The notes below the pieces were generated by a model. That model did no database searches. It had not been told where the DNA came from and saw nothing but the letters and a program-made list of their open reading frames with translations. Made by a program: the position numbers and the translations under genes. A stretch of 64,000 nt of DNA from Heterodontus francisci (lineage: Eukaryota): contig NC_090399.1 in NCBI RefSeq assembly GCF_036365525.1, positions 54,530,430 to 54,594,429 on the forward strand, in the 5' to 3' direction. Positions 1 through 57,862 of this stretch are shown piece by piece. Numbering within the stretch: position 1 is the stretch's first letter; the number at the start of each line of letters is the position of its first letter.

Positions 1-3000
1 GGGAGGGGGTCAGTGTCCTGGGGAGAGGGGTGGGGAGAGGGTCAGTGTCCCGCAGAGAGGGTCAGTGTCCCGGGGGGAGGGTCAGTGTCCCGGGAAGAGG
101 GTCAGTGTCCTGGGGAGATGGGTTGGGGGGGGGTGGGGGTCAGTATCCCGGGGAGAGGGGTTGGGGAGAGTCTGTGTCCCGGAGAGAGGAGTGTGAGTGT
201 CCCAGGGAGTGGGGTCAGTGGCCCCAGGAGAGGGGTTGGGGGGAGGGTCAGAGTCCCGGGAGAGGGTCAGTGTCCTGGGGAGATGGGTTGGGGGGAGGGT
301 CAGAGTCCCGGGGAGAGCGGTTGGGGAGAGTCTGTGTCCCTGAGAGAGGGGCTGGGGGGAAAGTCTGTGTCCCGGGGAGAGGGGCTGGGGAGAGGGGTTG
401 GAGAGAGGGTCAGTGTCCTGGGGAGAGGGTCAGTGTCCCAGGGAGAGGGGTTGGGGGAAGGGTCAGTGTCTCGTGGAGAGGAGTTGGGGAGGGGGTCACT
501 GTCCTGGGGAGAGGGTCAGTGACCCAGGGAGAGGGGCTGGGGGGAAAGTCTGTGTCCCGGGGAGAGGGGTTGGGGAGAGGGGTTGGAGAGAGGGTCAGTG
601 TCCCGGGGAGAGGGTCAGTGTCGCGGGAAGAGGGTCAGTGTCCCAGGGAGAGGGGTTGGGGGAAGGGTCAGTGTCTCGGGGAGAGGGGTTAGGGAGAGGG
701 TCAATTTCCCGGGGAGAGGGTTTGGGGAGAGGGTCAGTGTCCCGGGGAGAGGGGTTGGGGAGAGGGTCAGTGTCCCGGGGAGAGGAGTTGCGGAGGGGGT
801 CACTGTCCTGGGGAGAGGGTCAGTGAACCGGGGAGGGGGTCAGTGTCCTGGGGAGAGGGGTGGGGAGAGGGTCAGTGTCCCGCGGAGAGGGTCAGTGTCC
901 CGGGGAGAGGGTCAGTGTCCCGGGGAGAGGGTCAGTGTCCCGGGGAGAGGATCAGTGTCCCGGGAAGAGGATCAGTGTCCTGGGGAGATGGGTTGGGGGG
1001 AGGGTCAGTGTCCCAGGGAGAGGGGTTGGGGAGAGTATGTGTCCCGGAGAGAGGAGTGTGAGTGTCCCAGGGAGTGGGGTCAGTGGCCCCAGGAGAGGGG
1101 TTGGGGGGAGGGTCAGTGTCCCGGGAAGAGGGACAGTGTCCCGGGAAGAGGGGTTGGGGGGAGAGGGGCAGCATCCCGGGGAGAGGGGTTGGGGGGAGGG
1201 TCAGTGTCCAGGGGAGAAGGATGGGGAGAGGGGTTGGGGAGAGGGGCAGAGTCCCGGGGAGAGGGGTTGGGGAGAGGGGTTGGGGAGAGGGGCAGTGTCC
1301 CGGGGAGAGGGGTTTGGGGGAGGGTCAGTGTCCCGGGGAGAAGGGTTGGGGAGAGGGTCAGTATCCCGGGGAGAAGGGTTGGGGGGAGGGTCAGTGTCCC
1401 GGGGTGAGGGGTTGGGGGGAAGGATCAGTGTCGTGGGGAGAGGGGTTGGGGAGAGGGTCAGTGTCCCGGGGAGAGGGGTTGGGGGGCAGGTCAGTGTCCC
1501 GGGGAGAGGGGTTGGGGAGAGGGTCAGTGTCCCGGGGAGAGGGGTTGGGGAGAGTCGGTGTCCCGGAGAAAGGGGTTGGGGAGAGGGTCAGTGTCCCGGG
1601 AGAGGGGTTGGGGAGAGGGGTTGGGGAGAGGGTTTGGGGAGAGGGTTTGGGGAGAGGGTCAGTGCCCCGGGGAGTGGGGTTGGGGGGAGGGTCAGTGTCC
1701 TGGGGAGAGGGGTTGGGGAGAGGTTCAGTGTCCCGGGAAGAGGGTCAGTATCCCGGGGAGAGGGTTTGGGAGAGGGTCAGTGTCCCGGGGAGAGGGGTTG
1801 GGGAGAGGTTCAGTGTCGCGGGGAGAGGAGTAGGGGGGAGGGTCAGTGTCCCGGGAAGAGGGTCCGTGTCCCAGGGAGAGGGTCAGTATCCAGCAGAGAG
1901 GGTCAGTGTCCTGGGGAGAAGGTCAGTGTCCCGGGAAGAGGGTCAGTGTCCCGGGAAGAGGGGTTGGGGGGAGAGGGGCAGCATCCCGGGGAGAGGGGTT
2001 GGGGGGAGGGTCAGTGTCCAGGGGAGAGGGGTAGGGGAGAGGGGTTGGGGAGAGGGACAGTGTCCCGGGAATAGGGGTTGGGGAGAGGGGCAGTGTCCCG
2101 GGGAGAGGGGTTGGGGGGAGGGTCAGTGTCCCGGGGAGAAGGGTTGGGGAGAGGGTCAGTATCCCGGGGAGAGCTGTTGGGGGGAAGGTCAGTGTCCCGG
2201 TGAGAGGGGTTGGGGAGAGGTTCAGTGTCCCGGGGAGAGGGGTTGGGGGGAGGGTCAGTGTCCTGGGGAGAGGGGTTGGGGGGAAGGTCAGTGTCCAGGG
2301 GAGAGGGGTTGGGGAGAGGGGTTGGGGAGAGGGGTTGGGGAGAGGGGCAGTGTCCCGGGGAGAGGGGTTGGGGGGCAGGTCAGTGTCCCGGGGAGAGGGG
2401 TTGGGGAGAGGGTCAGTGTTCCGCAGAGAGGGTCAGTGTCCCGGGGAGAGGGTCAGTGTCCCGGGGAGAGGGTCAGTGTCCCGGGGAGATGGGTTGGGGG
2501 GGGGGGGGTCAGTGTCCCGGGGAGAGGGGTTGGGGAGAGTCTGTGTCCCGGAGAGAGGAGTGTGAGTGTCCCAGGGAGTGGGGTCATGGCCCCAGGAGAG
2601 GGGTTGGGGGGAGGGTCAGTGTCCCGGGAGAGGGTCAGTGTCCTGGGGAGATGGGTTGGGGGGAGGGTCAGTGTCCCGGGGAGAGCGGTTGGGGAGAGTC
2701 TGTGTCCCTGAGAGAGGGGCTGGGGGGAACGTCTGTGTCCCGGGGAGAGGGGCTGGGGAGAGGGGTTGGAGAGAGGGTCAGTGTCCCGGGGAGAGGGTCA
2801 GTCCCAGGGAGAGGGGTTGGGGGAAGGGTCAGTGTCTCGTGGAGAGGAGTTGGGGAGGGGGTCACTGTCCTGGGGAGAGGGTCAGTGACCCAGGGAGAGG
2901 GGTTGGAGAGAGCGTCAGTGTCCCGGGGAAAGGGTCAGTGTCCCGGGAAGAGGGTCAGTGTCCCGGGAAGAGGGTCAGTGTCCCGGGAAGAGGGGTTGGG

Positions 3001-6000
3001 GGAAGGGTCAGTGTCTCGGGGAGAGGGGTTGGGGAGAGGGTCAGTTTCCCGGGGAGAGGGTTTGGGGAGAGGGTCAGTGTCCCGGGGAGAGGGGTTGGGG
3101 AGAGGGTCAGTGTCCCAGGGAGAGGGGTTGGGGGAAGGGTCAGTGTCTCGGGGAGAGGGGTTGGGGAGAGGGTCAGTGTCCCGGGGAGAGGGGTTGGGGA
3201 GGGGGTCACTGTCCTGGGGAGAGGGTCAGTGACCCGGGGAGGGGGTCAGTGTCCTGGGGAGAGGGTCAGTGACCCGGGGAGGGGGTCAGTGTCCTGGGGA
3301 GAGGGGTGGGGAGAGGGTCAGTGTCCCGCGGAGAGGGTCAGTGTGCCGGGGAGAGGGTCAGTGTGCCGGGAAGAGGGTCAGTGTCCTGGGGAGATGGGTG
3401 GGGAGAGGGTCAGTGTCCCGGGGAGAGGGGTTGGGAAGAGTATGTGTCCCGGAGAGAGGAGTGTGAGTGTCCCAGGGAGTGGGGTCAGTGGCCCCAGGAG
3501 AGGGGTTGGGGGGGGTGGGGTCAGTGTCCCGGGGAGAGGGTCAGTGTCCCGGGAAGAGGGGTTGGGGGGAGAGGGGCAGCATCCCGGGGAGAGGGGTTGG
3601 GGGGAGGGTCAGTGTCCAGGGGAGAGGGATGGGGATAGGGGTTGGGGAGAGGGGCAGTGTCCCGGGGAGAGGGGTTGGGGGGAGGGTCAGTGTCCTGGGG
3701 AGAGGGGTTGGGGGGGAAGGTCAGTGTCCAGGGGAGAGGGTTTGGGGAGAGGGGTTGGGGAGAGGGGTTGGGGAGAGGGGTTGGGGAGAGGGGTTGGGGA
3801 GAGGGGCAGTGTCCCGGGGAGAAGGGTTGGGGAGAGGGTCAGTATCCCGTGGAGAAGGGTTGGGGGGAAGGATCAGTGCCTCGGGGAGAGGGGTTGGGGA
3901 GAGGGTCAGTGTTCCCAGGGAGAGGGGTTGGGGGGAGGGTCAGTGTCCCGGGAGAGGGACAGTGTCCTGGGGAGATGGGTTGGGGGGAGGGTCAGTGTCC
4001 CGGGGAGAGCGGTTGTGGAGAGTCTGTGTCCCTGAGAGAGGGGCTGGGGGGAAAGTCTGTGTCCCGGGGAGAGGGGCTGGGGAGAGGGGTTGGAGAGAGG
4101 GTCAGTGTCCCGGGGAGAGGGTCAGTGTCCCGGGAAGAGGGTCAGTGTCCCGGGAAGAGGGGTTGGGGGAAGGGTCAGTGTCTCGGGGAGAGGGGTTGGG
4201 GAGAGGGTCAGTGTCCCGGGGAGAGGGTTTGGGGAGAGGGTCAGTGTCCCGGGGAGAGGGGTTGGGGAGAGGGTCAGTGTCCCGGTGAGAGGAGTTGGGG
4301 AGGGGGTCACTGTCCTGGGGAGAGAGTCAGTGACCCGGGGAGGGTGTCAGTGTCCTGGGGAGGGGGGTTGGGGGGCAGGTCAGTGTCCCGGTGAGAGGGG
4401 TTGGGGAGAGGGTCAGTGTTCCGCAGAGAGGGTCAGTGTCCCGGGGAGAGGGTCAGTGTCCCGGGGAGAGGGTCAGTGTCCTGGGGAGATGGGTTGGGGG
4501 GGGGGGGGGGTCAGTGTCCCGGGGAGAGGGGTTGGGGAGAGTCTGTGTCCCGGAGAGAGGAGTGTGAGTCTCCCAGGGAGTGGGGTCATGGCCCCAGGAG
4601 AGGGTTTGGGGGGAGGGTCAGTGTCCCGGGAGAGGGTCAGTGTCCTGGGGAGATGGGTTGGGGGGAGGGTCAGTGTCCCGGGGAGAGCGGTTGGGGAGAG
4701 TCTGTGTCCCTGAGAGAGGGGCTGGGGGGAAAGTCTGTGTCCTGGGGAGATGGGTTGGAGAGAGGGTCAGTGTCCCGGGGAGAGGGTCAGTGTCCCAGGG
4801 AGAGGGGTTGGCTGAAGGGTCAGTGTCTCGTGGAGAGGAGTTGGGGAGGGGGTCACTGTCCTGGGGAGAGGGTCAGTGACGCAGGGAGATGGGCTGGGGG
4901 GAAAGTCTGTGTCCCGGGGAGAGGGGTTGGGGAGAGGGGTTGGAGAGAGGGTCAGTGTCCCGGGGAAAGGGTCAGTGTCCCGGGAAGAGGGTCAGTGTCC
5001 CAGGGAGAGCGGTTGGGGGAAGGGTCAGTGTCTCGGGGAGAGGGGTTGGGGAGAGGGTCAGTGTCCCGGGGAGAGGGTTTGGGGAGAGGGTCAGTGTCCC
5101 GGGGAGAGGGGTTGGGGAGAGGGTCAGTGTCCCAGGGAGAGGGGTTGGGGAGAGGGTCAGTGTCTCGGGGAGAGGGGTTGGGGAGAGGGTCAGTGTCCCG
5201 GGGAGAGGGTTTGGGGAGGGGGTCACTGTCCTGGGGAGAGGGTCAGTGACCCGGGGAGGGGGTCAGTGTCCTGGGGAGAGGGGTGGGGAGAGGGTCAGTG
5301 TCCCGCGGAGAGGGTCAGTGTCCCGGGGAGAGGGTCAGTGTCCTGGGGAGATGGGTTGGGGGGAGGGTCAGTGTCCCGGGGAGAGGGGTTGGGAAGAGTA
5401 TGTGTCCCGGAGAGAGGAGTGTGAGTGTCCCAGGGAGTGGGGTCAGTGGCCCCAGGAGAGGGGTTGGGGGGGGGGGGGGGTCAGTGTCCCGGGAAGAGGG
5501 TCAGTGTCCCGGGAAGAGGGTCAGTGTCCCGGGAAGAGGGGTTGGGGGGAGAGGGGCAGCATCCCGGGGAGAGGGGTTGGGGGGAGGGTCAGTGTCCAGG
5601 GGAGAGGGATGGGGAGAGGGGTTGGGGAGAGGGGCAGTGTCCCGGGGAGAGGGGTTGGGGGGAGGGTCAGTGTCCTGGGGAGAGGGGTTGGGGGGAAGGT
5701 CAGTGTCCAGGGGAGAGGGGTTGGGGAGAGGGGTTGGGGAGAGGGGCAGTGTCCCGGGGAGAAGGGTTGGGGAGAGGGTCAGTATCCCGTGGAGAAGGGT
5801 TGGGGGGAAGGATCAGTGTCTCGGGGAGAGGGGTTGGGGAGAGGGTCCGTGTTCCCAGGGAGAGGGGTTGGGGGGAGGGTCAGTGTCCCGGGGAGAGGGG
5901 TTGGGGGGAGGGTCAGTGTCCCGGGGAGAGGGGTTGGGGAGAGGGTCAGTGTCCCGGGGAGAGGGGTTGGGGAGAGGGTCAGTGTCCCGGAGAAAGGGGT

Positions 6001-9000
6001 TGGGGAGAGGGTCAGTGTCCCGGGAGAGGGGTTGGGGAGAGGGGTTAGGGAGAGGGTTTGGGGAGAGGGTCAGTGCCCCGGGGAGTGGGGTTGGGGGGAG
6101 GGTCAGTGTCCTGGGGAGAGGGGTTGGGGAGAGGTTCAGTGTCCCGGGAAGAGGGTCAGTATCCCGGGGAGAGGGGTTGGGAGAGGGTCAGTGTCCCGGG
6201 GAGAGGGGTTGGGGAGAGGTTCAGTGTCGCGGGGAGAGGAGTAGGGGGGAGGGTCAGTGTCCCGGGGAGAGGAGTAGGGGGGAGGGTCAGTGTCCCGGGG
6301 AGAGGGTCAGTATCCAGCAGAGAGGGTCAGTGAACTGGGGAGAAGGTCAGTGTCCCGGGAAGAGGGTCAGTGTCCCGGGAAGAGGGGTTGGGGGGTGAGG
6401 GGCAGCATCCCGGGGAGAGGGGCTGGGGGGAAGGTCAGTGTCCAGGGGAGAGGGGTTGGGGAGAGGGGCAGTGTCCCGGGGAGAGGGGTTGGGGGGAGGG
6501 TCAGCGTCCCGGGGAGAAGGGTTGGGGAGAGGGTCAGTATCCCGGGGAGAGCTGTTGGGGGGAAGGTCAGTGTCCTGGTGAGAGGGGTTGGGGAGAGGTT
6601 CAGTGTCCCGGGGAGAGGGGTTGTGGGGAGGGTCAGTGTCCTGGGGAGAGGGGTTGGGGGGGAAGGTCAGTGTCCAGGGGAGAGGGGTTGGGGAGAGGGG
6701 TTGGGGAGAGGGGCAGTGTCCCGGGGAGAAGGGTTGGGGAGAGGGTCAGTATCCCGTGGAGAAGGGTTGGGGGGAAGGATCAGTGTCTCGGGGAGAGGGG
6801 TTGGGGAGAGGGTCAGTGTTCCCAGGGAGAGGGGTTGGGGGGAGGGTCAGTGTCCCGGGGAGAGGGGTTGGGGGGAGGGTCAGTGTCCCGGGGAGAGGGG
6901 TTGGGGAGAGGGTCAGTGTCCCGGGGAGAGGGGTTGGGGAGAGGGTCAGTGTCCCGGAGAAAGGGGTTGGGGAGAGGGTCAGTGTCCCGGGAGAGGGGTT
7001 GGGGAGAGGGGTTAGGGAGAGGGTTTGGGGAGAGGGTCAGTGCCCCGGGGAGTGGGGTTGGGGGGAGGGTCAGTGTCCTGGGGAGAGGGGTTGGGGAGAG
7101 GTTCAGTGTCCCGGGAAGAGGGTCAGTATCCCGGGGAGAGGGGTTGGGAGAGGGTCAGTGTCCCGGGGAGAGGGGTTGGGGAGAGGTTCAGTGTCGCGGG
7201 GAGAGGAGTAGGGGGGAGGGTCAGTGTCCCGGGGAGAGGGTCAGTGTCCCGGGGAGAGGGTCATTATCCAGCAGAGAGGGTCAGTGAACTGGGGAGAAGG
7301 TCAGTGTCCCGGGAAGAGGGTCAGTGTCCCGGGAAGAGGGGTTGGGGGGAGAGGGGCAGCATCCCGGGGAGAGGGGCTGGGGGGAAGGTCAGTGTCCAGG
7401 GGAGAGGGGTTGGGGAGAGGGGCAGTGTCCCAGGGAGAGGGGTTGGGGGGAGGGTCAGCGTCCCGGGGAGAAGGGTTGGGGAGAGGGTCAGTATCCCGGG
7501 GAGAGCTGTTGGGGGGAAGGTCAGTGTCCTGGTGAGAGGGGTTGGGGAGAGGTTCAGTGTCCCGGGGAGAGGGGTTGGGGGGAGGGTCAGTGTCCTGGGG
7601 AGAGGGGTTGGGGGGGAAGGTCAGTGTCCAGGGGAGAGGGGTTGGGGAGATGGGTTGGGGAGAGGGGCAGTGTCCTGGGGTGAGGGGTTGGGGGGAAGGA
7701 TCAGTGTCTCGGGGAGAGGGGTTGGGGAGAGGGTCAGTGTTCCCAGGGAGAGGGGTTGGGGGGAGGGTCAGTGTCCCGGGGAGAGGGGTTGGGGGGCAGG
7801 TCAGTGTCCCGGGGAGAGGGGTTGGGGAGAGGGTCAGTATCCCGGGGAGAGCTGTTGGGGGGAAGGTCAGTGTCCTGGTGAGAGGGGTTGGGGAGAGGTT
7901 CAGTGTCCCGGGGGGAGAGGTTCAGTGTCCCGGGGAGAGGGGTTGGGGGGAGGGTCAGTGTCCTGGGGAGAGGGGTTGGGGGGAAGGTCAGTGTCCAGGG
8001 GAGAGGAGCTGGGGAGATGGGTTAGGGAGAGGGGCAGTGTCCTGGGGTGAGGGGTTGGGGGGAAGGATCAGTGTCTCGGGGAGAGGGGTTGGGGAGAGGG
8101 TCAGTGTTCCCAGGGAGAGGGGTTGGGGGGAGGGTCAGTGTCCCGGGGAGAGGGGTTGGGGGGCAGGTCAGTGTCCCGGGGAGAGGGGTTGGGGAGAGGG
8201 TCAGTGTCCCGCAGAGAGGGTCAGTGTCCCGGGGAGAGGGTCAGTGTCCCGGGAAGTGGGGTCAGTGGCCCCAGGAGAGGGGTCAGTGGCCCCAGGAGAG
8301 GGGTTGGGGGGAGGGTCAGTGTCCCGGGAGAGGGACAGTGTCCTGGGGAGATGGGTTGGGGGGAGGGTCAGTGTCCCGGGGAGAGCGGTTGGGGAGAGTC
8401 TGTGTCCCTGAGAGAGGGGCTGGGGGGAAAGTCTGTGTCCCGGGGAGAGGGGCTGGGGAGAGGGGTTGGAGAGAGGGTCAGTGTCCCGGGGAGAGGGTCA
8501 GTGTCCCGGGAAGAGGGTCAGTGTCCCGGGAAGAGGGTCAGTGTCCCGGGAAGAGGGGTTGGGGGAAGGGTCAGTGTCTCGGGGAGAGGGGTTGGGGAGA
8601 GGGTCAGTGTCCCGGGGAGAGGGTTTGGGGAGAGGGTCAGTGTCCCGGGGAGAGGGGCTGGGGAGAGGGTCAGTGTCCCGGTGAGAGGAGTTGGGGAGGG
8701 GGTCACTGTCCTGGGGAGAGAGTCAGTGACCCGGGGAGGGGGTCAGTGTCCTGGGGAGAGGGGTGGGGAGAGGGTCAGTGTCCTGCGGAGAGGGTCAGTG
8801 TCCCGGGGAGAGGGTCAGTGTCCCGGGGAGAGGGTCAGTGTCCTGGGGAGATGGGTTGGGGGGAGGGTCAGTGTCCCGGGGAGAGGGGTTGGGGAGAGTA
8901 TGTGTCCCGGAGAGAGGAGTGTGAGTGTCCCGGGAAGAGGGTCAGTGTCCCGGGAAGAGGGGTTGGGGGGAGAGGGGCAGCATCCCGGGGAGAGGGATTG

Positions 9001-12000
9001 GGGGGAGGGTCAGTGTCCAGGGGAGAGGGATGGGGAGAGGGGTTGGGGAGAGGGGCAGTGTCCCGGGGAGAGGGGTTGGGGGGAGGGTCAGTGTCCTGGG
9101 GAGAGGGGTTGGGGGGAAGGTCAGTGTCCAGGGGAGAGGGGTTGGGGAGAGGGGTTGGGGAGAGGGGCAGTGTCCCAGGGAGAGGGGTTTGGAGGAGGAT
9201 CAGTGTCCCGGGGAGAATGGTTGGGGAGAGGGTCAGTATCCCGGGGAGAAGGTTTGGGGGGAAGGATCAGTGTCTCGGGGAGAGGGGTTGGGGAGAGGGT
9301 CAGTGTTCCCAGGGAGAGGGGTTGGGGGGAGGGTCAGTGTCCCGGGGAGAGGGGTTGGGGGGAGGGTCAGTGTCCCGGGGAGAGGGGTTGGGGGGAGGGT
9401 CAGTGTCCCGGGGAGAGGCGTTGGGGGGCAGGTCAGTGTCCCGGTGAGAGGAGTTGGGGAGGGGGTCACTGTCCTGGGGAGAGAGTCAGTGACCCGGGGA
9501 GGGGGTCAGTGTCCTGGGGAGAGGGGTGGGGAGAGGGTCAGTGTCCTGCGGAGAGGGTCAGTGTCCCGGGGAGAGGGTCAGTGTCCCGGGGAGAGGGTCA
9601 GTGTCCTGGGGAGATGGGTTGGGGGGAGGGTCAGTGTCCCGGGGAGAGGGGTTGGGGAGAGTATGTGTCCCGGAGAGAGGAGTGTGAGTGTCCCAGGGAG
9701 TGGGGTCAGTGGCCCCAGGAGAGGGGTTGGGGGGAGGGTCAGTGTCCCGGGAAGAGGGTCAGTGTCCCGGGAAGAGGGGTTGGGGGGAGAGGGGCAGCAT
9801 CCCGGGGAGAGGGATTGGGGGGAGGGTCAGTGTCCAGGGGAGAGGGATGGGGAGAGGGGTTGGGGAGAGGGGCAGTGTCCCGGGGAGAGGGGTTGGGGGG
9901 AGGGTCAGTGTCCTGGGGAGAGGGGTTGGGGGGAAGGTCAGTGTCCAGGGGAGAGGGGTTGGGGAGAGGGGTTGGGGAGAGGGGCAGTGTCCCAGGGAGA
10001 GGGGTTTGGAGGAGGATCAGTGTCCCGGGGAGAATGGTTGGGGAGAGGGTCAGTATCCCGGGGAGAAGGTTTGGGGGGAAGGATCAGTGTCTCGGGGAGA
10101 GGGGTTGGGGAGAGGGTCAGTGTTCCCAGGGAGAGGGGTTGGGGGGAGGGTCAGTGTCCCGGGGAGAGGGGTTGGGGGGAGGGTCAGTGTCCCGGGGAGA
10201 GTGGTTGGGGGGAGGGTCAGTGTCCCGGGGAGAGGCGTTGGGGGGCAGGTCAGTGTCCCGGGGAGAGGGGTTGGGGAGAGGGTCAGTGTCCCGGGGAGAG
10301 GGGTTGGGGAGAGTCGGTGTCCCGGAGAAAGGGGTTGGGGAGAGGGTCAGTGTCCCGGAGAAAGGGGTTGGGGAGAGGGTCAGTGTCCCGGGAGAGGGGT
10401 TGGGGAGAGGGGTTAGGGAGAGGGTTTGGGGAGAGGGTTTGGGGAGAGGGTCAGTGCCCCGAGGAGTGGGGTTGGGGGGAGGGTCAGTGTCCTGGGGAGA
10501 GGGGTTGGGGAGAGGTTCAGTGTCCCGGGAAGAGGGTCAGTATCCCGGGGAGAGGGGTTGGGAGAGGGTCAGTGTCCCGGGGAGAGGGGTTGGGGAGAGG
10601 TTCAGTGTCGCGGGGAGAGGAGTAGGGGGGAGGGTCAGTGTCCCGGGGAGAGGGTCAGTGTCCCGGGGAGAGGGTCAGTATCCAGCAGAGAGGGTCAGTG
10701 TCCTGGGGAGAAGGTCAGTGTCCCGGGAAGAGGGTCAGTGTCCCGGGAAGAGGGTCAGTGTCCCGGGAAGAGGGCTTGGGGGGAGAGGGGCAGCATCCCG
10801 GGGAGAGGGGTTGGGGGGAGGGTCAGTGTCCAGGGGAGAGGGGTAGGGGAGAGGGGTTGGGGAGAGGGGCAGTGTCCCGGGGAGAGGGGTTGGGGGGAGG
10901 GTCAGTGTCCCGGGGAGAAGGGATGGGGAGAGGGTCAGTATCCTGGGGAGAGCTGTTGGGGGGAGGGTCAGTGTCCCGGTGAGCGGGGTTGGGGAGAGGT
11001 TCAGTGTCCCGGGGAGAGGGGTTGGGGGGAGGGTCAGTGTCCTGGGGAGAGGGGTTGGGGGGAAGGTCAGTGTCCAGCGGAGAGGGGTTGGGGAGAGGGG
11101 TTGGGGAGAGGGGCAGTGTCCTGGGGTGAGGGGTTGGGGGGAAGGAACAGTGTCTCGGGGAGAGGGGTTGGGGAGAGGCTCAGTGGTCCCAGGGAGAGGG
11201 GTTGGGGGGAGGGTCAGTGTCCTGGGGAGATGGGTTGGGGAGAGTGTCAGTATCCCGGGGAGAGGGGTTGGGGGGAGGGTCAGTGTCCTGGGGTGAGGGG
11301 TTGGGGGGAAGGATCAGTGTCTCGGGGAGAGGGGTTGGGGAGAGGGTCAGTGTTCCCAAGGAGAGGGGTTGGGGGGCAGGTCAGTGTCCCGGGGAGAGGG
11401 GTTGGGGAGAGGGTCAGTGTCCCGGGGAGAGGGGTTGGGGGGCAGGTCAGTGTCCCGGGGAGAGGGGTTGGGGGGCAGGTCAGTGTCCCGGGGAGAGGGG
11501 TTGGGGGGCAGGTCAGTGTCCCGGGGAGAGGGGTTGGGGAGAGTATGTGTCCCGGAGAGAGGAGTGTGAGTGTCCCAGGGAGTGGGGTCAGTGGCCCCAG
11601 GAGAGGGGTGGGGGGGGGGTGGGGTCAGTGTCCCGGGAAGAGGGTCAGTGTCCCGGGAAGAGGGGTTGGGGGGAGAGGGGCAGCATCCCGGGGAGAGGGG
11701 TTGGGGGGAGGGTCAGTGTCCAGGGGAGAGGGATGGGGTGAGGGGTTGGGGAGAGGGGCAGTGTCTCGGGGAGAGGGGTTGGGGGTAGGGTCAGTGTCCT
11801 GGGGAGAGGGGTTGGGGGGAAGGTCAGTGTCCAGGGGAGAGGGGTTGGGGAGAGGGGTTGGGGAGAGGGGCAGTGTCCCGGGGAGAAGGGTTGGGGAGAG
11901 GGTCAGTATCCCGTGGAGAAGGGTTGGGGGGAAGGATCAGTGTCTCGGGGAGAGGGGTTGTGGAGAGGGTCAGTGTTCCCAGGGAGAGGGGTTGGGGGGA

Positions 12001-15000
12001 GGGTCAGTGTCCCTGGGAGAGGGGTTGGGGGGAGGGTCAGTGTCCCGGGGAGAGGGGTTGGGGAGAGTCGGTGTCCCGGAGAAAGGGGTTGGGGAGAGGG
12101 TCAGTGTCCCGGGAGAGGGGTTGGGGAGAGGGGTTAGGGAGAGGGTTTGGGGAGAGGGTGAGTGCCCCGGGGAGTGGGGTTGGGGGGAGGGTCAGTGTCC
12201 TGGGGAGAGGGGTTGGGGAGAGGTTCAGTGTCCCGGGAAGAGGGGTTGGGGAGAGGTTCAGTGTCGCGGGGAGAGGAGTAGGGGGGAGGGTCAGTGTCCC
12301 GGGGAGAGGGTCAGTGTCCCCGGGAGAGGGTCAGTATCCAGCAGAGAGGGTCAGTGAACTGGGGAGAAGGTCAGTGTCCCGGGAAGAGGGTCAGTGTCCC
12401 GGGAAGAGGGGTTGGGGGGAGAGGGGCAGCATCCCGGGGAGAGGGGCTGGGGGGAAGGTCAGTGTCCAGGGGAGAGGGGTTGGGGAGAGGGGCAGTGTCC
12501 CGGGGAGAGGGGTTGGGGGGAGGGTCGGTGTCCCGGGGAGAAGGGTTGGGGAGAGGGTCAGTATCCCGGGGAGAGCTGTTGGGGGGAAGGTCAGTGTCCT
12601 GGTGAGAGGGGTTGGGGAGAGGTTCAGTGTCCCGGGGAGAGGGGTTGGGGGGAGGGTCAGTGTCCTGGGGAGAGGGGTTGGGGGGAAGGTCAGTGTCCAG
12701 GGGAGAGGGGTTGGGGTGATGGGTTGGGGAGAGGGGCAGTGTCCTGGGGTGAGGGGTTGGGGGGAAGGATCAGTGTCTCGGGGTGAGGGGTTGGGGAGAG
12801 GGTCAGTGTTCCCAGGGAGAGGGGTTGGGGGGAGGGTCAGTGTCCCGGGGAGAGGGGTTGGGGGGCAGGTCAGTGTCCCGGGGAGAGGGGTTGGGGAGAG
12901 GGTCAGTGTCCCGCAGAGAGGGTCAGTGTCCCGGGGAGAGGTTCAGTGTCCCGGGGAGTGGGGTCAGTGGCCCCAGGAGAGGGGTTGGGGGGAGGGTCAG
13001 TGTCCCGGGGGAGGGACAGTGTCCTGGGGAGATGGGTTGGGGGGAGGGTCAGTGTCCCGGGGAGAGCGGTTGGGGAGAGTCTGTGTCCCTGAGAGAGGGG
13101 CTGGGGGGAAAGTCTGTGTCCCGGGGAGAGGGGCTGGGGAGAGGGGTTGGAGAGAGGGTCAGTGTCCCGGGGAGAGGGTCAGTGTCCCGGGAAGAGGGTC
13201 AGTGTCCCGGGAAGAGGGTCAGTGTCCCGGGAAGAGGGGTTGGGGGAAGGGTCAGTGTCTCGGGGAGAGGGGTTGGGGAGAGGGTCAGTGTCCCGGGGAG
13301 AGGGGTTGGGGAGAGGGTCAGTGTCCCGGGGAGAGGGTTTGGGGAGAGGGTCAGTGTCCCGGTGAGAGGAGTTGGGGAGGGGGTCACTGTCCTGGGGAGA
13401 GAGTCAGTGACCCGGGGAGGGGGTCAGTGTCCTGGGGAGAGGGGTGTGGAGAGGGTCAGTGTCCTGCGGAGAGGGTCAGTGTCCCGGGGAGAGGGTCAGT
13501 GTCCCGGGGAGAGGGTCAGTGTCCTGGGGAGATGGGTTGGGGGGAGGGTCAGTGTCCCGGGGAGAGGGGTTGGGGAGAGTATGTGTCCCGGAGAGAGGAG
13601 TGTGAGTGTCCCAGGGAGTGGGGTCAGTGGCCCCAGGAGAGGGGTTGGGGGGAGGGTCAGTGTCCCGGGAAGAGGGTCAGTGTCCCGGGAAGAGGGGTTG
13701 GGGGGAGAGGGGCAGCATCCCGGGGAGAGGGGTTGGGGGGAGGGTCAGTGTCCAGGGGAGAGGGATGGGGAGAGGGGTTGGGGAGAGGGGCAGTGTCCCG
13801 GGGAGAGGGGTTGGGGGGAGGGTCAGTGTCCTGGGGAGAGGGGTTTGGGGGAAGGTCAGTGTCCAGGGGAGAGGGGTTGGGGAGAGGGGTTGGGGAGAGG
13901 GGTTGGGGAGAGGGGTTGGGGAGAGGGGCAGTGTCCCAGGGAGAGGGGTTTGGGGGAGGATCAGTGTCCCGGGGAGAATGGTTGGGGAGAGGGTCAGTAT
14001 CCCGGGGAGAAAGTTTGGGGGGAAGGATCAGTGTCCCGGGGAGAGGGGTTGGGGAGAGGGTCAGTGTTCCCAGGGCGAGGGGTTGGGGGGAGGGTCAGTG
14101 TCCCGGGGAGAGGCGTTGGGGGGCAGGTCAGTGTCCCGGGGAGAGGGGTTGGGGAGAGGGTCAGTGTCCCGGGGAGAGGGGTTGGGGAGAGTCGGTGTCC
14201 CGGAGAAAGGGGTTGGGGAGAGGGTCAGTGTCCCGGGAGAGGGGTTGGGGAGAGGGGTTAGGGAGAGGGTTTGGGGAGAGGGTTTGGGGAGAGGGTCAGT
14301 GCCCCGAGGAGTGGGGTTGGGGGGAGGGTCAGTGTCCTGGGGAGAGTGGTTGGGGAGAGGTTCAGTGTCCCGGGAAGAGGGTCAGTGTCCTGGGGAGAAG
14401 GGTTGGGGAGAGTGTCAGTATCCCGGGGAGAGGGGTTGGGGGGAGGGTCAGTGTCCCGGGGAGAAGGGATGGGGAGAGGTTCAGTGTCCCGGGGAGAGGG
14501 GTTGGGGGGAGGGTCAGTGTCCTGGGGAGAGGGGTTGGGGGGAAGGTCAGTGTCCAGCGTAGAGGGGTTGGGGAGAGGGGTTGGGGAGAGGAGCAGTGTC
14601 CTGGGGTGAGGGGTTGGGGGGAAGGATCAGTGTCTCGGGGAGAGGGGTTGGGGAGAGGGTCAGTGTTCCCAGGGCGAGGGGTTGGGGGGAGGGTCAGTGT
14701 CCCGGGGAGAGGCGTTGGGGGGCAGGTCAGTGTCCCGGGGAGAGGGGTTGGGGAGAGGGTCAGTGTCCCGGGGAGAGGGGTTGGGGAGAGTCGGTGTCCC
14801 GGAGAAAGGGGTTGGGGAGAGGGTCAGTGTCCCGGGAGAGGGGTTGGGGAGAGGGGTTAGGGAGAGGGTTTGGGGAGAGGGTTTGGGGAGAGGGTCAGTG
14901 CCCCGAGGAGTGGGGTTGGGGGGAGGGTCAGTGTCCTGGGGAGAGTGGTTGGGGAGAGGTTCAGTGTCCCGGAAGAGGGTCAGTGTCCTGGGGAGAAGGG

Positions 15001-18000
15001 TTGGGGAGAGTGTCAGTATCCCGGGGAGAGGGGTTGGGGGGAGGGTCAGTGTCCCGGGGAGAAGGGATGGGGAGAGGTTCAGTGTCCCGGGGAGAGGGGT
15101 TGGGGGGGAGGGTCAGTGTCCTGGGGAGAGGGGTTGGGGGGAAGGTCAGTGTCCAGCGTAGAGGGGTTGGGGAGAGGGGTTGGGGAGAGGAGCAGTGTCC
15201 TGGGGTGAGGGGTTGGGGGGAAGGATCAGTGTCTCGGGGAGAGGGGTTGGGGAGAGGGTCAGTGTTCCCAGGGAGACGGGTTGGGGGGAGGGTCAGTGGC
15301 CCGGGGAGAGGGGTTGGGGGGCAGGTCAGTGTCCCGGGGAGAGGGGTTTGGGGGAGGGTCAGTGTCCTGGGGAGAAGGGTTGGGGAGAGTGTCAGTATCC
15401 CGGGGAGAGGGGTTGGGGGGAGGGTCAGTGTCCTGGGGTGAGGGGTTGGGGGGAAGGATCAGTGTCTCGGGGAGAGGGGTTGGGGAGAGGGTCAGTGTTC
15501 CCAAGGAGAGGGGTTGGGGGGCAGGTCAGTGTCCCGGGGAGAGGGGTTGGGGAGAGGGTCAGTGTCCCGGGGAGAGGGGTTGGGGGGCAGGTCAGTGTCC
15601 CGGGGAGAGGGGTTGGGGGGCAGGTCAGTGTCCCGGGGAGAGGGGTTGGGGAGAGGGTCAGTGTCCCGGGGAGAGGGGTTGGGGGGCAGGTCAGTGTCCC
15701 GGGGAGAGGGGTTGGGGGGCAGGTCAGTGTCCCGGGGAGAGGGGTTGGGGAGAGGGTCAGTGTCCCTGGGAGAGGGGTTGGGGAGAGTCGGTGTCCCGGA
15801 GAAAGGGGTTGGGGAGAGGGTCAGTGTCCCGGGAGAGGGGTTGGGGAGAGGGGTTAGGGAGAGGGTTTGGGGAGAGGGTCAGTGCCCCGGGGAGTGGGGT
15901 TGGGGGGAGGGTCAGTGTCCTGGGGAGAGGGTCAGTGTCCCGGTGAGAGAGGTTGGGGGAAGGGTCAGTGTGCCGGGGAGAGGGTTTGGGGAGATGGTCA
16001 GTGTCCCGGGATAGGGGTTGGGGAGAGGGTCAGTATCCCGGGAGAGGGGTTGGGGGGAGGGTCAGTGTCCCTGGGAGAGGGGTCGGGGGAAGGTTCAGTG
16101 TCCCGGGGAGAGGGTCAGTGTCCCGGGGAGATGGGTTGGCGAGAGGGATTGGGGAGAGGGTCAGTGTCCCGGGGAGAGGGGTTGGGGGGGTGGGTCAGTG
16201 TCCCGGGGAGAGGGGTTGGGGAGAGGGTCAGCGTCCCGGGGACAGGGGTTGGGGAGAGTCTGGGTCCCGGAGAGAGGGGTTTGGGGGAGGGTCAGTGTCC
16301 TGGGGAGAAGGGTTGGGGAGAGTGTCAGTGTCCCGGGGGGAGGGGTTGGGGGGAGGGTCAGTGTCCTGGGGTGAGGGGTTGGGGGGAAGGATCAGTGTCC
16401 CGGGGAGAGGGGTTGGGGGGCAGGTCAGTATCCCGGGGAGAGGGGTTGGGGAGAGAGTCAGTGTCCCGGGGAGAGGGGTTGGGGAGAGGGTCAGTGTCCT
16501 GGGGAGAGGGGTTGGGGAGAGGGGTTAGGGAGAGGGTTTTGTGAGAGGGTTTGGGGAGAGGGTCAGTGCCCCGGGGAGTGGGGTTCGGGGGAGGGTCAGT
16601 GTCCTGGGGAGAGGGGTTGGGGAGAGGGTCAGTGTGCCGGGGAGAGGGGTTGGGGAGAGGGTCAGTGTGCCGGGGAGAGGGGCTGGGGAGATGGTCAGTG
16701 TCCCGGGGAGAGGGGTTGGGGGCAGGTCAGTGTCCCGGGGAGAGGGGTAGGGGAGAGGGTCAGTGTCCCGCAGAGAGGGTCAGTGTCCCGGGGAGTGGGG
16801 TCAGTGGCCCCAGGAGAGGGGTTGGGGGGAGGGTCAGTGTCCCGGGGAGAGCGGTTGGGGAGAGTCTGTGTCCCTGAGAGAGGGGCTGGGGGGAAAGTCT
16901 GTGTCCCGGGGAGAGGGGCTGGGGAGAGGGGTTGGAGAGAGGGTCAGTGTCCCGGGGAGAGGGTCAGTGTCCCAGGGAGAGGGGTTGGGGGAAGGGTCAG
17001 TGTCTCGTGGAGAGGAGTTGGGGAGGGGGTCACTGTCCTGGGGAGAGGGTCAGTGACCCAGGGAGAGGGGCTGGGGGGAAAGTCTGTGTCCCGGGGAGAG
17101 GGGATGGGGAGAGGGGTTGGAGAGAGGGTCAGTGTCCCGGGGAGAGGGTCAGTGTCCCAGGGAGAGGGGTTGGGGGAAGGGTCAGTGTCTCGGGGAGAGG
17201 GGTTGGGGAGAGTATGTGTCCCGGAGAGAGGAGTGTGAGTGTCCCAGGGAGTGGGGTCAGTGGCCCCAGGAGAGGGGTTGGGGGGAGGGTCAGTGTCCCG
17301 GGAAGAGGGTCAGTGTCCCGGGAAGAGGGGTTGGGGGGAGAGGGGCAGCATCCCGGGGAGAGGGGTTGGGGGGAGGGTCAGTGTCCAGGGGAGAGGGATG
17401 GGGAGAGGGGTTGGGGAGAGGGGCAGTGTCCCGGGGAGAGGGGTTGGGGGGAGGGTCAGTGTCCTGGGGAGAGGGGTTTGGGGGAAGGTCAGTGTCCAGG
17501 GGAGAGGGGTTGGGGAGAGGGGTTGGGGAGAGGGGTTGGGGAGAGGGGTTGGGGAGAGGGGTTGGGGAGAGGGGCAGTGTCCCAGGGAGAGGGGTTTGGG
17601 GGAGGATCAGTGTCCCGGGGAGAATGGTTGGGGAGAGGGTCAGTATCCCGGGGAGAAAGTTTGGGGGGAAGGATCAGTGTCTCGGGGAGAGGGGTTGGGG
17701 AGAGGGTCAGTGTTCCCAGGGCGAGGGGTTGGGGGGAGGGTCAGTGTCCCGGGGAGAGGCGTTGGGGGGCAGGTCAGTGTCCCGGGGAGAGGGGTTGGGG
17801 AGAGGGTCAGTGTCCCGGGGAGAGGGGTTGGGGAGAGTCGGTGTCCCGGAGAAAGGGGTTGGGGAGAGGGTCAGTGTCCCGGGAGAGGGGTTGGGGAGAG
17901 GGGTTAGGGAGAGGGTTTGGGGAGAGGGTTTGGGGAGAGGGTCAGTGCCCCGAGGAGTGGGGTTGGGGGGAGGGTCAGTGTCCTGGGGAGAGGGGTTGGG

Positions 18001-21000
18001 GAGAGGTTCAGTGTCCCGGGAAGAGGGTCAGTGTCCTGGGGAGAAGGGTTGGGGAGAGTGTCAGTATCCCGGGGAGAGGGGTTGTGGGGAGGGTCAGTGT
18101 CCCGGGGAGAAGGGATGGGGAGAGGGTCAGTATCCCGGGGAGAGCTGTTGGGGGGAGGGTCAGTGTCCCGGTGAGCGGGGTTGGGGAGAGGTTCAGTGTC
18201 CCGGGGAGAGGGGTTGGGGGGAGGGTCAGTGTCCTGGGGAGAGGGGTTGGGGGGAAGGTCAGTGTCCAGCGTAGAGGGGTTGGGGAGAGGGGTTGGGGAG
18301 AGGAGCAGTGTCCTGGGGTGAGGGGTTGGGGGGAAGGATCAGTGTCTCGGGGAGAGGGGTTGGGGAGAGGGTCAGTGTTCCCAGGGAGACGGGTTGGGGG
18401 GAGGGTCAGTGTCCCGGGGAGAGGGGTTGGGGGGCAGGTCAGTGTCCCGGGGAGAGGGGTTTGGGGGAGGGTCAGTGTCCTGGGGAGAAGGGTTGGGGAG
18501 AGTGTCAGTATCCCGGGGAGAGGGGTTGGGGGGAGGGTCAGTGTCCTGGGGTGAGGGGTTGGGGGGAAGGATCAGTGTCTCGGGGAGAGGGGTTGGGGAG
18601 AGGGTCAGTGTTCCCAAGGAGAGGGGTTGGGGGGCAGGTCAGTGTCCCGGGGAGAGGGGTTGGGGAGAGGGTCAGTGTCCCGGGGAGAGGGGTTGGGGGG
18701 CAGGTCAGTGTCCCGGGGAGAGGGGTTGGGGGGCAGGTCAGTGTCCCGGGGAGAGGGGTTGGGGAGAGGGTCAGTGTCCCGGGGAGAGGGGTTGGGGGGC
18801 AGGTCAGTGTCCCGGGGAAAGGGGTTGGGGGGCAGGTCAGTGTCCCGGGGAGAGGGGTTGGGGAGAGGGTCAGTGTCCCTGGGAGAGGGGTTGGGGAGAG
18901 TCGGTGTCCCGGAGAAAGGGGTTGGGGAGAGGGTCAGTGTCCCGGGAGAGGGGTTGGGGAGAGGGGTTAGGGAGAGGGTTTGGGGAGAGGGTCAGTGCCC
19001 CGGGGAGTGGGGTTGGGGGGAGGGTCAGTGTCCTGGGGAGAGGGTCAGTGTCCCGGTGAGAGAGGTTGGGGGAAGGGTCAGTGTGCCGGGGAGAGGGTTT
19101 GGGGAGATGGTCAGTGTCCCGGGATAGGGGTTGGGGAGAGGGTCAGTATCCCGGGAGAGGGGTTGGGGGGAGGGTCAGTGTCCCTGGGAGAGGGGTCGGG
19201 GGAAGGTTCAGTGTCCCGGGGAGAGGGTCAGTGTCCCGGGGAGATGGGTTGGCGAGAGGGATTGGGGAGAGGGTCAGTGTCCCGGGGAGAGGGGTTGGGG
19301 GGGTGGGTCAGTGTCCCGGGGAGAGGGGTTGGGGAGAGGGTCAGCGTCCCGGGGACAGGGGTTGGGGAGAGTCTGGGTCCCGGAGAGAGGGGTTTGGGGG
19401 AGGGTCAGTGTCCTGGGGAGAAGGGTTGGGGAGAGTGTCAGTGTCCCGGGGGGAGGGGTTGGGGGGAGGGTCAGTGTCCTGGGGTGAGGGGTTGGGGGGA
19501 AGGATCAGTGTCCCGGGGAGAGGGGTTGGGGGGCAGGTCAGTATCCCGGGGAGAGGGGTTGGGGAGAGGGTCAGTGTCCCGGGGAGAGGGGTTGGGGAGA
19601 GGGTCAGTGTCCTGGGGAGAGGGGTTGGGGAGAGGGGTTAGGGAGAGGGTTTGGGGAGAGGGTTTTGTGAGAGGGTTTGGGGAGAGGGTCAGTGCCCCGG
19701 GGAGTGGGGTTCGGGGGAGGGTCAGTGTCCTGGGGAGAGGGGTTGGGGAGAGGGTCAGTGTGCCGGGGAGAGGGGTTGGGGAGAGGGTCAGTGTGCCGGG
19801 GAGAGGGGCTGGGGAGATGGTCAGTGTCCCGGGGAGAGGGGTTGGGGGCAGGTCAGTGTCCCGGGGAGAGGGGTAGGGGAGAGGGTCAGTGTCCCGCAGA
19901 GAGGGTCAGTGTCCCGGGGAGTGGGGTCAGTGGCCCCAGGAGAGGGGTTGGGGGGAGGGTCAGTGTCCCGGGGAGAGCGGTTGGGGAGAGTCTGTGTCCC
20001 TGAGAGAGGGGCTGGGGGGAAAGTCTGTGTCCCGGGGAGAGGGGCTGGGGAGAGGGGTTGGAGAGAGGGTCAGTGTCCCGGGGAGAGGGTCAGTGTCCCA
20101 GGGAGAGGGGTTGGGGGAAGGGTCAGTGTCTCGTGGAGAGGAGTTGGGGAGGGGGTCACTGTCCTGGGGAGAGGGTCAGTGACCCAGGGAGAGGGGCTGG
20201 GGGGAAAGTCTGTGTCCCGGGGAGAGGGGATGGGGAGAGGGGTTGGAGAGAGGGTCAGTGTCCCGGGGAGAGGGTCAGTGTCCCAGGGAGAGGGGTTGGG
20301 GGAAGGGTCAGTGTCTCGGGGAGAGGGGTTGGGGAGAGGGTCAGTGTCCCGGGGAGAGGGTTTGGGGAGAGGGTCAGTGTCCCGGGGAGAGGGGTTGGGG
20401 AGAGGGTCAGTGTCCCGGGGAGAGGAGTTGGGGAGGGGGTCACTGTCCTGGGGAGAGAGTCAGTGACCCGGGGAGGGGGTCAGTGTCCTGGGGAGAGGGG
20501 TGGGGAGAGGGTCAGTGTCCCGGGGAGAGGGTCAGTGTCCCGGGAAGAGGGTCAGTGTCCTGGGGAGATGGGTTGCGGGGAGGGTCAGTGTCCCGGGGAG
20601 AGGGGTTGGGGAGAGTATGTGTCCCGGAGAGAGGAGTGTGAGTGTCCCAGGGAGTGGGGTCAGTGGCCCCAGGAGAGGGGTTGGGGGGAGGGTCAGTGTC
20701 CCGGGAACAGGGTCAGTGTCCCAGGAAGAGGGGTTGGGGGGAGAGGGGCAGCATCCCGGGGAGAGGGGTTGGGGGGAGGGTCAGTGTCCAGGGGAGAGGG
20801 ATGGGGAGAGGGGTTGGGGAGAGGGGCAGTGTCCCGGGGAGAGGGGTTGGGGGGAGGGTCAGTGTCCTGGGGAGAGGGGTTGGGGGGAAGGTCAGTGTCC
20901 AGGGGAGAGGGGTTGGGGAGAGGGGTTGGGGAGAGGGGCAGTGTCCCAGGGAGAGGGGTTTGGGGGAGGATCAGTGTCCCGGGGAGATGGGTTGGGGAGA

Positions 21001-23379: not shown

Positions 23380-23475
23380 GGGACACTGACCCTCTCCCCA
23401 ACCCCTCTCCCCGGGACACTGACCCTCTCCCCAACCCCTCTCCCCAGGACACTGACCCTCCCCCCAACCCTCTCC
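23380..23475 (-). repeat. About 3 inverted units of array 1 forming a fold-back end
   Basis: GGGACACTGACCCTCTCCCCAACCCCTCTCCCC is the reverse complement of the unit. Symmetry centre is TCCC|GGGA at 23379/23380. Confidence 0.95.
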
Positions 23476-23679: not shown

Positions 23680-23918
23680 ACTGAGAGGTGACATACGGCT
23701 GTGATCTGTGGGATGATGGGGGAAACTAGTGGATACTTCCAATATGGCTGGGATAGGAAGGATTTCATGACCTTCGACAAGGAGAACCTGGTGTGGATCA
23801 CCCCCGAACCCTGGGGAGTAATCTTGACGAATAAGGAAATGAACCTGTACCTATGGAAAGAAGACTGGGATGGAACCTGCATCGAGCTGCTGAAAAAATA
23901 CCTGAAGGCTGAGACCTG
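23680..23918 (+). pseudogene. MHC class I-like heavy chain, alpha2 exon (disrupted)
   Basis: VTYGCDLWDDG (23688-23720), then a +1 shift in a G5 run into ETSGYFQYGWDRKDFMTFDKENLVWITPEPWGVILTNK..WKEDWDGTCIELLKKYLK. Both alpha2 cysteines are present. Ends AGACCTG|GTGAGT (R-P plus phase-1 donor, out of frame with the body). No clean acceptor is visible. Confidence 0.9.
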
Positions 23919-27110: not shown

Positions 27111-27336
27111 TTGCTCCTCAAGTGTTTCTTTCCGTGGACAAATGTCAGCTGCTAAACCGGCCAAACTCTCCTGCCTCATCACAGGATTTTACCCTCGTAA
27201 TATCAAAGTTATCCTCCTGAGAAATGGCAAGTCAATTGAGAAAAAAATATACCACTGGCATCCTGCCCAACCAAAATGGCACCTACCAGTTTTGGAGATG
27301 GGTTCAGATCGAGTCTGAGGATGGAGTCACCTATTC
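27111..27336 (+). pseudogene. MHC class I-like alpha3 (Ig C1) exon, 5' part
   Basis: Acceptor TTTTACTCTCAG| with phase 1 gives (V)APQVFLS. A frameshift leads to AKPAKLSCLITGFYPRNIKVILLRNGKSIEK, and a second shift in an A7 run to YTTGILPNQNGTYQFWRWVQIESEDGVTYS. The exon is then cut by a CR1. Confidence 0.9.
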
Positions 27337-29161: not shown

Positions 29162-29211
29162 CTGTCAGTATGAGCAGAGCAGAAACGGAGGAGTGGAGAG
29201 CCGAGACTGGG
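29162..29211 (+). pseudogene. MHC class I-like alpha3 exon, 3' remainder
   Basis: Removing the CR1 restores TAT TCC TGT CAG TAT GAG CAG AGC.. = YSCQYEQSRNGGVESRDW, followed by G|ATAAGA (donor GT mutated to AT). Confidence 0.82.
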
Positions 29212-29351
29212 ATAAGAGGAACAGTGACTGCAAGGGTACTGTCTGTCAGTGATGTTTAAAGATGGTTATAATTACCTCTACTCATTCTGCCTTCCAAAAT
29301 CAATCACTTCACACTTCTCTGCATGAAATTGCATCTGCTGTGTGTCGGTCC

Positions 29352-50312: not shown

Positions 50313-50534
50313 CAGGGTTATTCACTTCACCGCTGCAGCTCGTGTCTTTGACAGACTGTCATGAAATTCAGCATTCACTGAATGAGAAATCTATACAAAC
50401 GTCAAGTGAAAAAGGAGCGAGCCAATGATAAAACTCAGTACAGTCCTTCCCGATACCCTGAGCCCAGTTACTGCTGTTTATAAACTGGTTTGGTGCTAGT
50501 TCAGCTGCTTTTAAACTCGTGAGCTACTTCAACT

Positions 50535-50581
50535 TCAAGCCAAGAATGCCAAGTTCAAAGATGATTCTCCTCTTTCAGCAG
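50535..50581 (-). CDS. Terminal cytoplasmic-tail exon of MHC class I-like gene
   Basis: TCTTTTCTTTTCACAG| phase 1 gives xAERGESSLNLAFLA*. Resembles the ..ESSSNSSATA* end recalled for shark class I chains. Lies downstream of the - strand TM exon. Confidence 0.65.
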
Positions 50582-56900: not shown

Positions 56901-57862
56901 CCCGCCAGTCCCCTCACTCCCTGCGCTCTACCCCGCCAGTCCCCTCACTCCCTGCGCTCTACCCCGCCAGTCCCCTCACTCCCTGCGCTCTCCCCCGCCA
57001 GTCCCCTCACTCCCTGCGCTCTCCCCCGCCAGTCCCCTCACTCCCTGCGCTCTCCCCCGCCAGTCCCCTCACTCCCTGCGCTCTCCCCCGCCAGTCCCCT
57101 CACTCCCTGCGCTCTCCCCCGCCAGTCCCCTCACTCCCTGCGCTCTCCCCCGCCAGTCCCCTCACTCCCTGCGCTCTCCCCCGCCAGTCCCCTCACTCCC
57201 TGCGCTCTCCCCCGCCAGTCCCCTCACTCCCTGCGCTCTCCCCCGCCAGTCCCCTCACTCCCTGCGCTCTACCCCGCCAGTCCCCTCACTCCCTGCGCTC
57301 TACCCCGCCAGTCCCCCCACTCCCTGCGCTCTACCCCGCCAGTCCCCCCACTCCCTGCGCTCTACCCCGCCAGTCCCCTCACTCCCTGCGCTCTACCCCG
57401 CCAGTCCCCCCACTCCCTGCGCTCTACCCCGCCAGTCCCCTCACTCCCTGCGCTCTACCCCGCCAGTCCCCTCACTCCCTGCGCTCTACCCCGCCAGTCC
57501 CCTCACTCCCTGCGCTCTACCCCGCCAGTCCCCTCACTCCCTGCGCTCAACCATCCCCCACCCCCAATGTCCCCTCACTCTCTGCGCTGAACCCCGCCAG
57601 TCCCCTCACTCCCTGCGCTCAACCCCGCCAGTCCCCTCAATCCCTGCGCTCAACCCCGCCAGTCCCCTCACTCCCTGCGCTCAACCCCGCCAGTCCCCTC
57701 ACTCCCTGCGCTCAACCATCCCCCACCCCCTATGTCCCCTCACTCCCTGCGCTGAACCCCGCCAGTCCCCTCACTCCCTGCGCTCAACCCCGCCAGTCCC
57801 CTCACTCCCTGTACTCAACCACCCCCCACCCCCAATGTCCCCTCACTCCCTGTAATCACCCC
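53965..57862 (-). repeat. Minisatellite array 3, 31-bp unit (+ strand CCCCGCCAGTCCCCCCACTCCCTGCGCTCTA), G-rich on -
   Basis: Read directly. About 120 units arranged in variant-specific blocks. Confidence 0.98.

Follow-up and report, generated by a model that had tools for sequence, protein, structure and literature searches.

The 64,000-nucleotide window of the shark Heterodontus francisci analysed here (positions 54530430-54594429 of NC_090399.1, hereafter C29, in a genome of 6.0 Gb) contains three giant G-rich minisatellites, all of them in introns of class I genes of the major histocompatibility complex (MHC). Based on the composition of their units and on related arrays in paralogues one can assume, with a probability of about 0.65, that these are exon-boundary minisatellites which grew in place by neutral expansion, in a region prone to repeats, and inherited their orientation. 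Special recombination platforms they probably are not. The arrays are distributed over two genes, B on the + strand and C on the − strand, whose parts in the window are as follows (TM, transmembrane).

1..23376, + strand: array 1, a G-rich minisatellite of 20/13/33-bp units, G skew +0.63 on +
23688..23918, + strand: broken alpha2 exon of gene B (PF00129, E 3.6e-5, below the curated cut-off)
23919-26942, + strand: array 2, ~106 units of 21-26 bp between the alpha2 remnant and alpha3, skew +0.71 on +
27111..27336, + strand: broken alpha3 exon of gene B (C1-set, E 1e-7), frameshifted and cut by an inserted long interspersed nuclear element (LINE)
50313..50581, − strand: last exon of gene C, in frame (AAERGESSLNLAFLA, stop and 3' untranslated region)
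54044-57866, − strand: array 3, a G-rich minisatellite of 31-bp units, 3.8 kb, skew +0.67 on −
58134..58244, − strand: TM exon of gene C, joined to an intact alpha3 by GT..AG splicing

An earlier note on this DNA had placed all three arrays in class I introns with the G-rich strand as the sense strand and had described arrays 1 and 2 as bracketing the + strand alpha2 exon. Both statements hold, array 1 occupying intron 2 and array 2 intron 3, and the position of array 3 between the − strand TM and tail exons was confirmed by the exons of gene C (58244-58134 and from 50581). The window sits within a shark MHC class I cluster, because some proteins match exons of this contig identically and their sources give them as Heterodontus francisci class I. 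The genome has 64 alpha1/alpha2 matches of PF00129, almost all of them at 32-67 Mb of C29. The exon order of class I genes (alpha1 and alpha2 of PF00129, C1-set alpha3, TM, tail) was found here, with gene B broken in three exons. Its alpha1 exon, 454-190 bases left of the window, assigns array 1 to intron 2 and has an in-frame stop; alpha2 has lost its acceptor and first bases and carries a frameshift and an internal deletion, and alpha3 is interrupted as listed. Gene B is therefore a class I pseudogene.

Array 2 (3.0 kb) starts at the splice donor of the alpha2 exon, and its unit combines the end of exon 3 and the donor with a G run, ACTGAGAGTC[AG]/GTGAGTGAG plus G's, also written ACTGAGAGTC[AG]/GTGAGT, where the slash marks the exon-intron boundary. 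Each unit holds an exon end together with a 5' splice site, and the array begins at the boundary; 88 copies are within 2 substitutions of a 20-mer core. Class I paralogues, grouped here by similarity and position as U, A, D, E, F, G, H and I (these labels are not published lineage names), allow this organization to be followed beyond the window. A donor-side array was scored when tandem repeats covered >20% of the 700 bases after the exon. Behind the alpha2 exon such arrays were G-rich in 26 of 37 class I exons and C-rich in none of the 37, while the 57 control exons, chosen by hand for being internal among 164 kinase and proteasome matches, gave four G-rich and two C-rich arrays. The 37 exons are not independent, since ten of them are near-identical U copies; counted by class I group, a donor-side G-rich array is present in 6 of 9, and in six class I groups this donor is followed by arrays related to array 2. 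The array is found where the exon ends in ACTGAG../GTGAGT-like sequence and is absent in all eight H/I genes, which have AAAG/GT donors; ten class I genes altogether have no donor-side array. A slight G skew is a property of the control donors as well: of 54, 32 were positive and 20 negative, with a median of +0.09 (p 0.04). It is the exon end of group E to which the 20-mer core corresponds, yet the core recurs in U, D, F and the window arrays, whose own exon ends are different; A arrays and some E arrays have drifted from it. A 35-mer of array 2 has 11 matches in the window and five, on the sense strand, in intron 3 of another class I gene. Intron 3 varies among paralogues from ~0.5 to 85 kb in this one assembly. 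In the classical-like genes it measures about 85 kb and 23 kb (C29 66.26-66.35 and 66.72-66.75 Mb), both ends being a 30/60-bp array of the array-2 family, of which >9.8 kb was seen.

Tandem duplication of a short sequence at or near an exon edge likely started the arrays in place, the G-rich sense strand likely being taken over from such seeds, and gene duplication likely carried the arrays into class I paralogues. With seeds and inheritance of this kind orientation would be inherited, not chosen array by array. Each array would then lengthen internally through slippage and unequal exchange, and would do so most freely where the gene is dead. Turnover within the array is shown by array 1, where internal block duplications of 0.5-1.4 kb share 99.3-100% identity and are therefore recent; they were seen with exact 60-mers, a megablast self-search giving no block >500 bp. 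Array 1 (intron 2 of gene B, 23.5 kb) begins ~95 bases left of the window and is private to this pseudogene: all ten genome matches of an array-1 53-mer and 78 of the 79 matches of an exact 22-mer are within the window, the remaining one being a lone non-array site. Among the 18 class I genes whose intron 2 was covered whole, an array >2 kb was found only in gene B. In the classical-like gene A66.35 this intron has 117 bp and is array-free, and it is ~120 bp long in two classical-like genes. When introns of other class I genes were searched for the seed of array 1, only weak matches appeared (E 0.04 and 0.006). Array 3 has a related 28-bp array at the same place in paralogue U59.2, and 100 of 126 genome matches of its pattern fall in the window, the places of the other 26 not being listed.

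The earlier note pointed to G3-G6 runs in all arrays and to shared cores. Runs of this type indeed dominate arrays 1-3, and both cores occur: array 1 has 494 copies of GTCAGTG and array 2 has 62, and GGGGGACTG is found 70 times in array 2 and 83 times in array 3. The sharing, however, hardly exceeds what units so rich in G would show by chance (p 0.09-0.10 for arrays 1 and 2, 0.04-0.075 for arrays 2 and 3), and a common origin of the three units is not supported by it. A satellite dispersed over the genome was considered too and rejected for arrays 1 and 2, whose matches are nearly confined to the window or to class I. Thus, the genome-wide spread that the earlier note had regarded as contrary to its proposal did not appear for these two arrays, array 3 keeping its 26 of 126 matches of unlisted place; nor did the random orientation relative to host genes. 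Array segments from introns of 24 class I genes (n=71; the introns are partly covered, and one seen in two pieces can count twice) were G-rich on the sense strand in 47 cases, C-rich in 8 and neutral in 16. The sense-strand bias to G is real but no rule.

Arrays adjoin other exon edges as well, namely the acceptor sides of introns 1 and 2 and the donors of TAP genes. A 137-bp array lies in intron 1 of two classical-like genes (C29 ~66.347-66.349 and ~66.712-66.721 Mb; 14.6 and at least 68.7 copies, 95-98% alike). Its unit looks like the alpha1 acceptor joined to a fragment of the codons of the alpha1 helix (YWERQTQI-like), by eye a possible conversion donor, though a homogeneous one. In the neighbouring MHC genes outside class I, the array starts at the donor in three of three TAP-like exons and is mildly G-rich (skew +0.22 to +0.38). 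These exons, near-identical, are at C29 65.15, 65.32 and 65.65 Mb, each with a donor-seeded 27/48-bp array, and represent either TAP duplication or uncollapsed haplotypes. A PSMB exon has an array on either side, one of 37 bp x at least 197 and one of 51 bp x at least 44 copies (at least 7.3 and 2.2 kb), both C-rich on the sense strand (skew −0.26 and −0.60). MHC class II beta, sought as a further control, gave no match in a search that was uninformative. Shorter shark chromosomes are reported to contain more simple tandem repeat (PMC10620051).

The C-rich arrays are also important for the assumption that polarity is kept by splicing, G runs and donor copies downstream of the 5' splice site being helpful or harmless, while C/T-rich arrays would mimic acceptors and get removed. 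It agrees with the start of arrays at donors and with the stop that any use of a pseudo-donor would meet at the third codon in all four genes checked; in human F7, moreover, pseudo-donors are described as functional but silent (PMC1557585). Yet the PSMB arrays and eight class I segments are C-rich on the sense strand, in ten class I genes no array follows the donor, and the longest array belongs to a pseudogene. Enrichment of G-quadruplexes (G4) at splice sites is described for mammals and birds but not for fish (PMC9065059). We consider maintenance by splicing unlikely.

Another group of data concerns exchange between paralogues. Trees of alpha1, alpha2 and alpha3 were built for 18 genes, six near-identical copies and all genes not covered in every exon being left out, and proved to be incongruent, contrary to the congruence that would have spoken against exon shuffling. 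In approximately unbiased (AU) tests alpha3 data reject the alpha1 and alpha2 trees (p 2e-7 and 3e-4), alpha2 data reject the alpha3 tree (p 5e-41) and by a small margin the alpha1 tree (0.037), and neither of the other two trees is accepted by alpha1 data (7e-5 and 0.003). Tests of this type readily reject noisy resolved trees, but the alpha3 conflict nodes have 98-100% bootstrap, and the strongest conflict is at intron 3. Across this intron the mean proportion of synonymous differences (pS) falls from alpha2 to alpha3 from 0.26 to 0.055 in A (3 genes), from 0.25 to 0.076 in E (8) and from 0.22 to 0.087 in F (3). In array-free H it falls from 0.238 to 0.054 (6 genes), so that the alpha3/alpha2 ratio of group means is 0.21-0.40 with arrays and 0.23 without them. 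Intron 3 of H, ~125 bp long and array-free, is 90-98% identical in all six pairs, while identity is 76% over the last third of H alpha2. Exchange was thus not higher with an array than without, and since H is homogenised equally, arrays are not needed for alpha3 exchange within groups. Homogenisation of alpha3 among paralogues likely reflects ordinary class I gene conversion combined with diversifying selection on alpha1/alpha2.

Swaps between groups leave more room for a passive role, in which the array-2 family, as a block of homology common to intron 3 of otherwise diverged class I lineages, would seed ectopic exchange that swaps the alpha3-TM cassette and would keep the unit homogeneous, with neither transcription nor G4 required. 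In the alpha3 tree A clusters with E/F (bootstrap 99), and U with D and the genes of the window, whereas by alpha2 A is close to U (proportion of nonsynonymous differences 0.12, versus 0.26 to E); between E and F pS drops from 0.44-0.58 in alpha2 to 0.15-0.21 in alpha3; the two types of alpha3 cassette switch directly behind the array, and the core of the unit is common across lineages. Proteins P0019 and P0024 from other sharks (this cross-species comparison involves proteins only) have alpha1/alpha2 somewhat closer to A (63-76% vs 57-70%) together with U-type alpha3 (70-72% vs 45-48%). In P0019, P0024 and P0032 the alpha2 is roughly equally or more A-like and paired with U-type alpha3, which may be a hint of old or recurrent swaps. 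But intron 3 is mostly array, where any breakpoint between alpha2 and alpha3 must therefore fall, H homogenises alpha3 equally without an array, and the array-free lineages are the most distant ones (alpha2 ~50% identical to the rest), so that the absence of swaps in them is confounded with divergence. For this reason, and as H, G and I are too distant for a comparison, the swaps between groups do not show promotion by arrays, and we regard this passive role as doubtful. Slightly more doubtful appears its stronger form, in which an ancient alpha2-donor minisatellite, common to classical and several non-classical lineages, served as the homology for swaps of the alpha3-TM cassette between lineages otherwise too diverged.

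The earlier note itself proposed that the arrays could be transcription-coupled recombination platforms, with R-loops and G4 as in immunoglobulin (Ig) switch regions, and this is weighed here in the form of platforms selected to shuffle class I domain exons. What it could build on persists: the sense-strand skew of all three arrays (+0.63 to +0.71), incongruent exon trees, and strong predicted G4 potential in arrays 1 and 3 (14.4 motifs per kb in the former and 3.4 in the latter, with G4Hunter >=1.5 over 43% and 72%). Transcription of gene C is likely as well: contigs from all four public runs examined (11 are listed) join its alpha3 to the TM exon across the GT..AG intron. It is likely rather than shown, because the runs, from 3 studies and 2 coded organisms, are presumed to be RNA and none is recorded as such. 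The causal step, however, fails in the array-free lineage, which exchanges equally. In array 2, at the very intron of exchange, canonical G4 motifs number 0 and G4Hunter covers 8%; array 1 belongs to one pseudogene alone, and a classical-like gene manages with an intron 2 of 117 bp. Ig switch regions are kilobase-long intronic repeats with a G-rich non-template strand and dense AGCT hotspots for AID, and switch recombination is somatic and AID-driven. The shark arrays resemble them in kilobase scale, intronic position and G-rich non-template strand and differ in being nearly free of AGCT (0.3, 0 and 0 per kb in arrays 1, 2 and 3), in showing no sign of a dedicated somatic pathway and in sharing their build with TAP and, C-rich, PSMB arrays. 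Shuffling of genes, besides, needs germline events. The analogy is thus weak, and selected platforms of this kind seem very improbable.

Growth in place from exon edges, which we prefer, has its own difficulties. Neither array 1 nor array 3 could be traced to a seed or to an exon-edge unit; G-rich segments exceed C-rich ones 47 to 8; all seven post-TM arrays are G-rich although their units differ; the MHC control outside class I consists of two gene families only; and every cross-lineage swap of alpha3 observed (A with E/F, E with F) is between groups that have arrays. Most of all, the 20-mer core is kept in U, D, F and the window, although alpha2 differs between these lineages at ~0.4-0.6 of synonymous sites. 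Since neutral drift of a fast-evolving repeat is expected to erase such a core, its conservation across lineages differing at about half their synonymous sites is unexplained and leaves a place for exchange between arrays or for selection. All these points weigh against the preferred reading.

Similar minisatellites are known in human genes: PMC1557585 describes donor-spanning ones in F7 IVS7 (a 37-bp variable number tandem repeat), CBS IVS13, LMNB2, PDGF intron 4 and IFI 6-16. In these, the first unit spans the exon-intron boundary and the donor is repeated down the intron, as in array 2 and the TAP arrays, while the human arrays have 5-25 copies in single genes, and here one family occupies many paralogues, with ~106 units in the window. 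In several class I lineages of the shark, unlike F7, the unit matches the exon end of another lineage. Concerted evolution of alpha3 is known from mammals (PMC1403747) and newts (PMC12863176), and the shark is similar in that alpha3 of paralogues is far more alike than alpha1/alpha2, synonymous sites included, and different in that its cluster offers an internal contrast between array-bearing and array-free lineages. For salmonids and cyprinids PMC6523485 reports intron-2 recombination, mainly allelic and aided by a long intron 2. Domain exons with different histories are common to both cases, whereas in the shark the conflict is strongest at intron 3 and intron 2 of two classical-like genes is ~120 bp long. 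No report of minisatellites in class I introns of sharks or fishes was found in a literature where subscription papers on shark class I were thinly covered, so that absence from print is not shown.

Some features of the host genes deserve description. A single gene with an inverted 3' half was rejected, because the − strand TM exon is spliced to an intact alpha3 of its own, which lies ~0.8-1.1 kb to the right of the window. One run contig extends 541 letters beyond this alpha3, a length close to that of alpha1 and alpha2 together. The assembly has a run of 200 N directly upstream of this alpha3, within an array-2-like repeat of intron 3, and alpha1/alpha2 were not found beside gene C. The database model of this gene, P0029, begins with LINE-like sequence in place of alpha1/alpha2 and is named CD1d2-like. 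Gene C showed no counterpart of the short tail exon of U59.2. The remaining features of the window are:

23380..23470, − strand: fold-back, an inverted C-rich copy (~91 bp) of array 1, centred on the CCC/GGG palindrome of the unit
27337..29265, − strand: decayed LINE truncating alpha3 of gene B, recognised by its translations and presumably CR1-like
29272..30570, + strand: open reading frame fragment, reverse transcriptase-like with GIY-YIG (E 0.0012, below cut-off), which we take to be a Penelope-like element

The fold-back is known from the assembly only and is followed by C-rich repeats. Between the genes there are small AT-richer tandem repeats at 33899-34067 (29 bp) and 34237-34331 (18 bp). 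A third class I fragment, broken and on the − strand, is located 30-49 kb left of the window. A 56-bp array in three blocks, C-rich on +, lies ~10.9-15.4 kb left of the window; it resembles intron-2 repeats of − strand paralogues and is perhaps a remnant of the left-hand gene fragment. At C29 42.30-42.34 Mb the alpha3 closest to an alpha1/alpha2 pair on − is itself on +, and each of the two adjoins a G-rich intron-3 array, possibly due to a mis-oriented scaffold join at the array or to an inversion. Ten class I copies, 99-100% identical in the exons compared and several hundred kb apart (C29 57.4-62.8 Mb, C815, C1290, C1655), are either a recent amplification or haplotype duplicates.

If the arrays grew in place from exon edges, their importance is mainly practical: exon-edge minisatellites in shark MHC introns likely break assemblies, as exemplified by gene C with its N run inside the intron-3 repeat and its LINE-led model, and in such genomes class I genes should be counted and modelled with care. 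The presence of the intron-3 array in some lineages and its absence from others form a natural contrast, by which repeat-driven shuffling of MHC exons becomes testable. Should the arrays after all act as shared homology, they would offer, at the level of sequence, a way for ancient class I lineages to swap alpha3.

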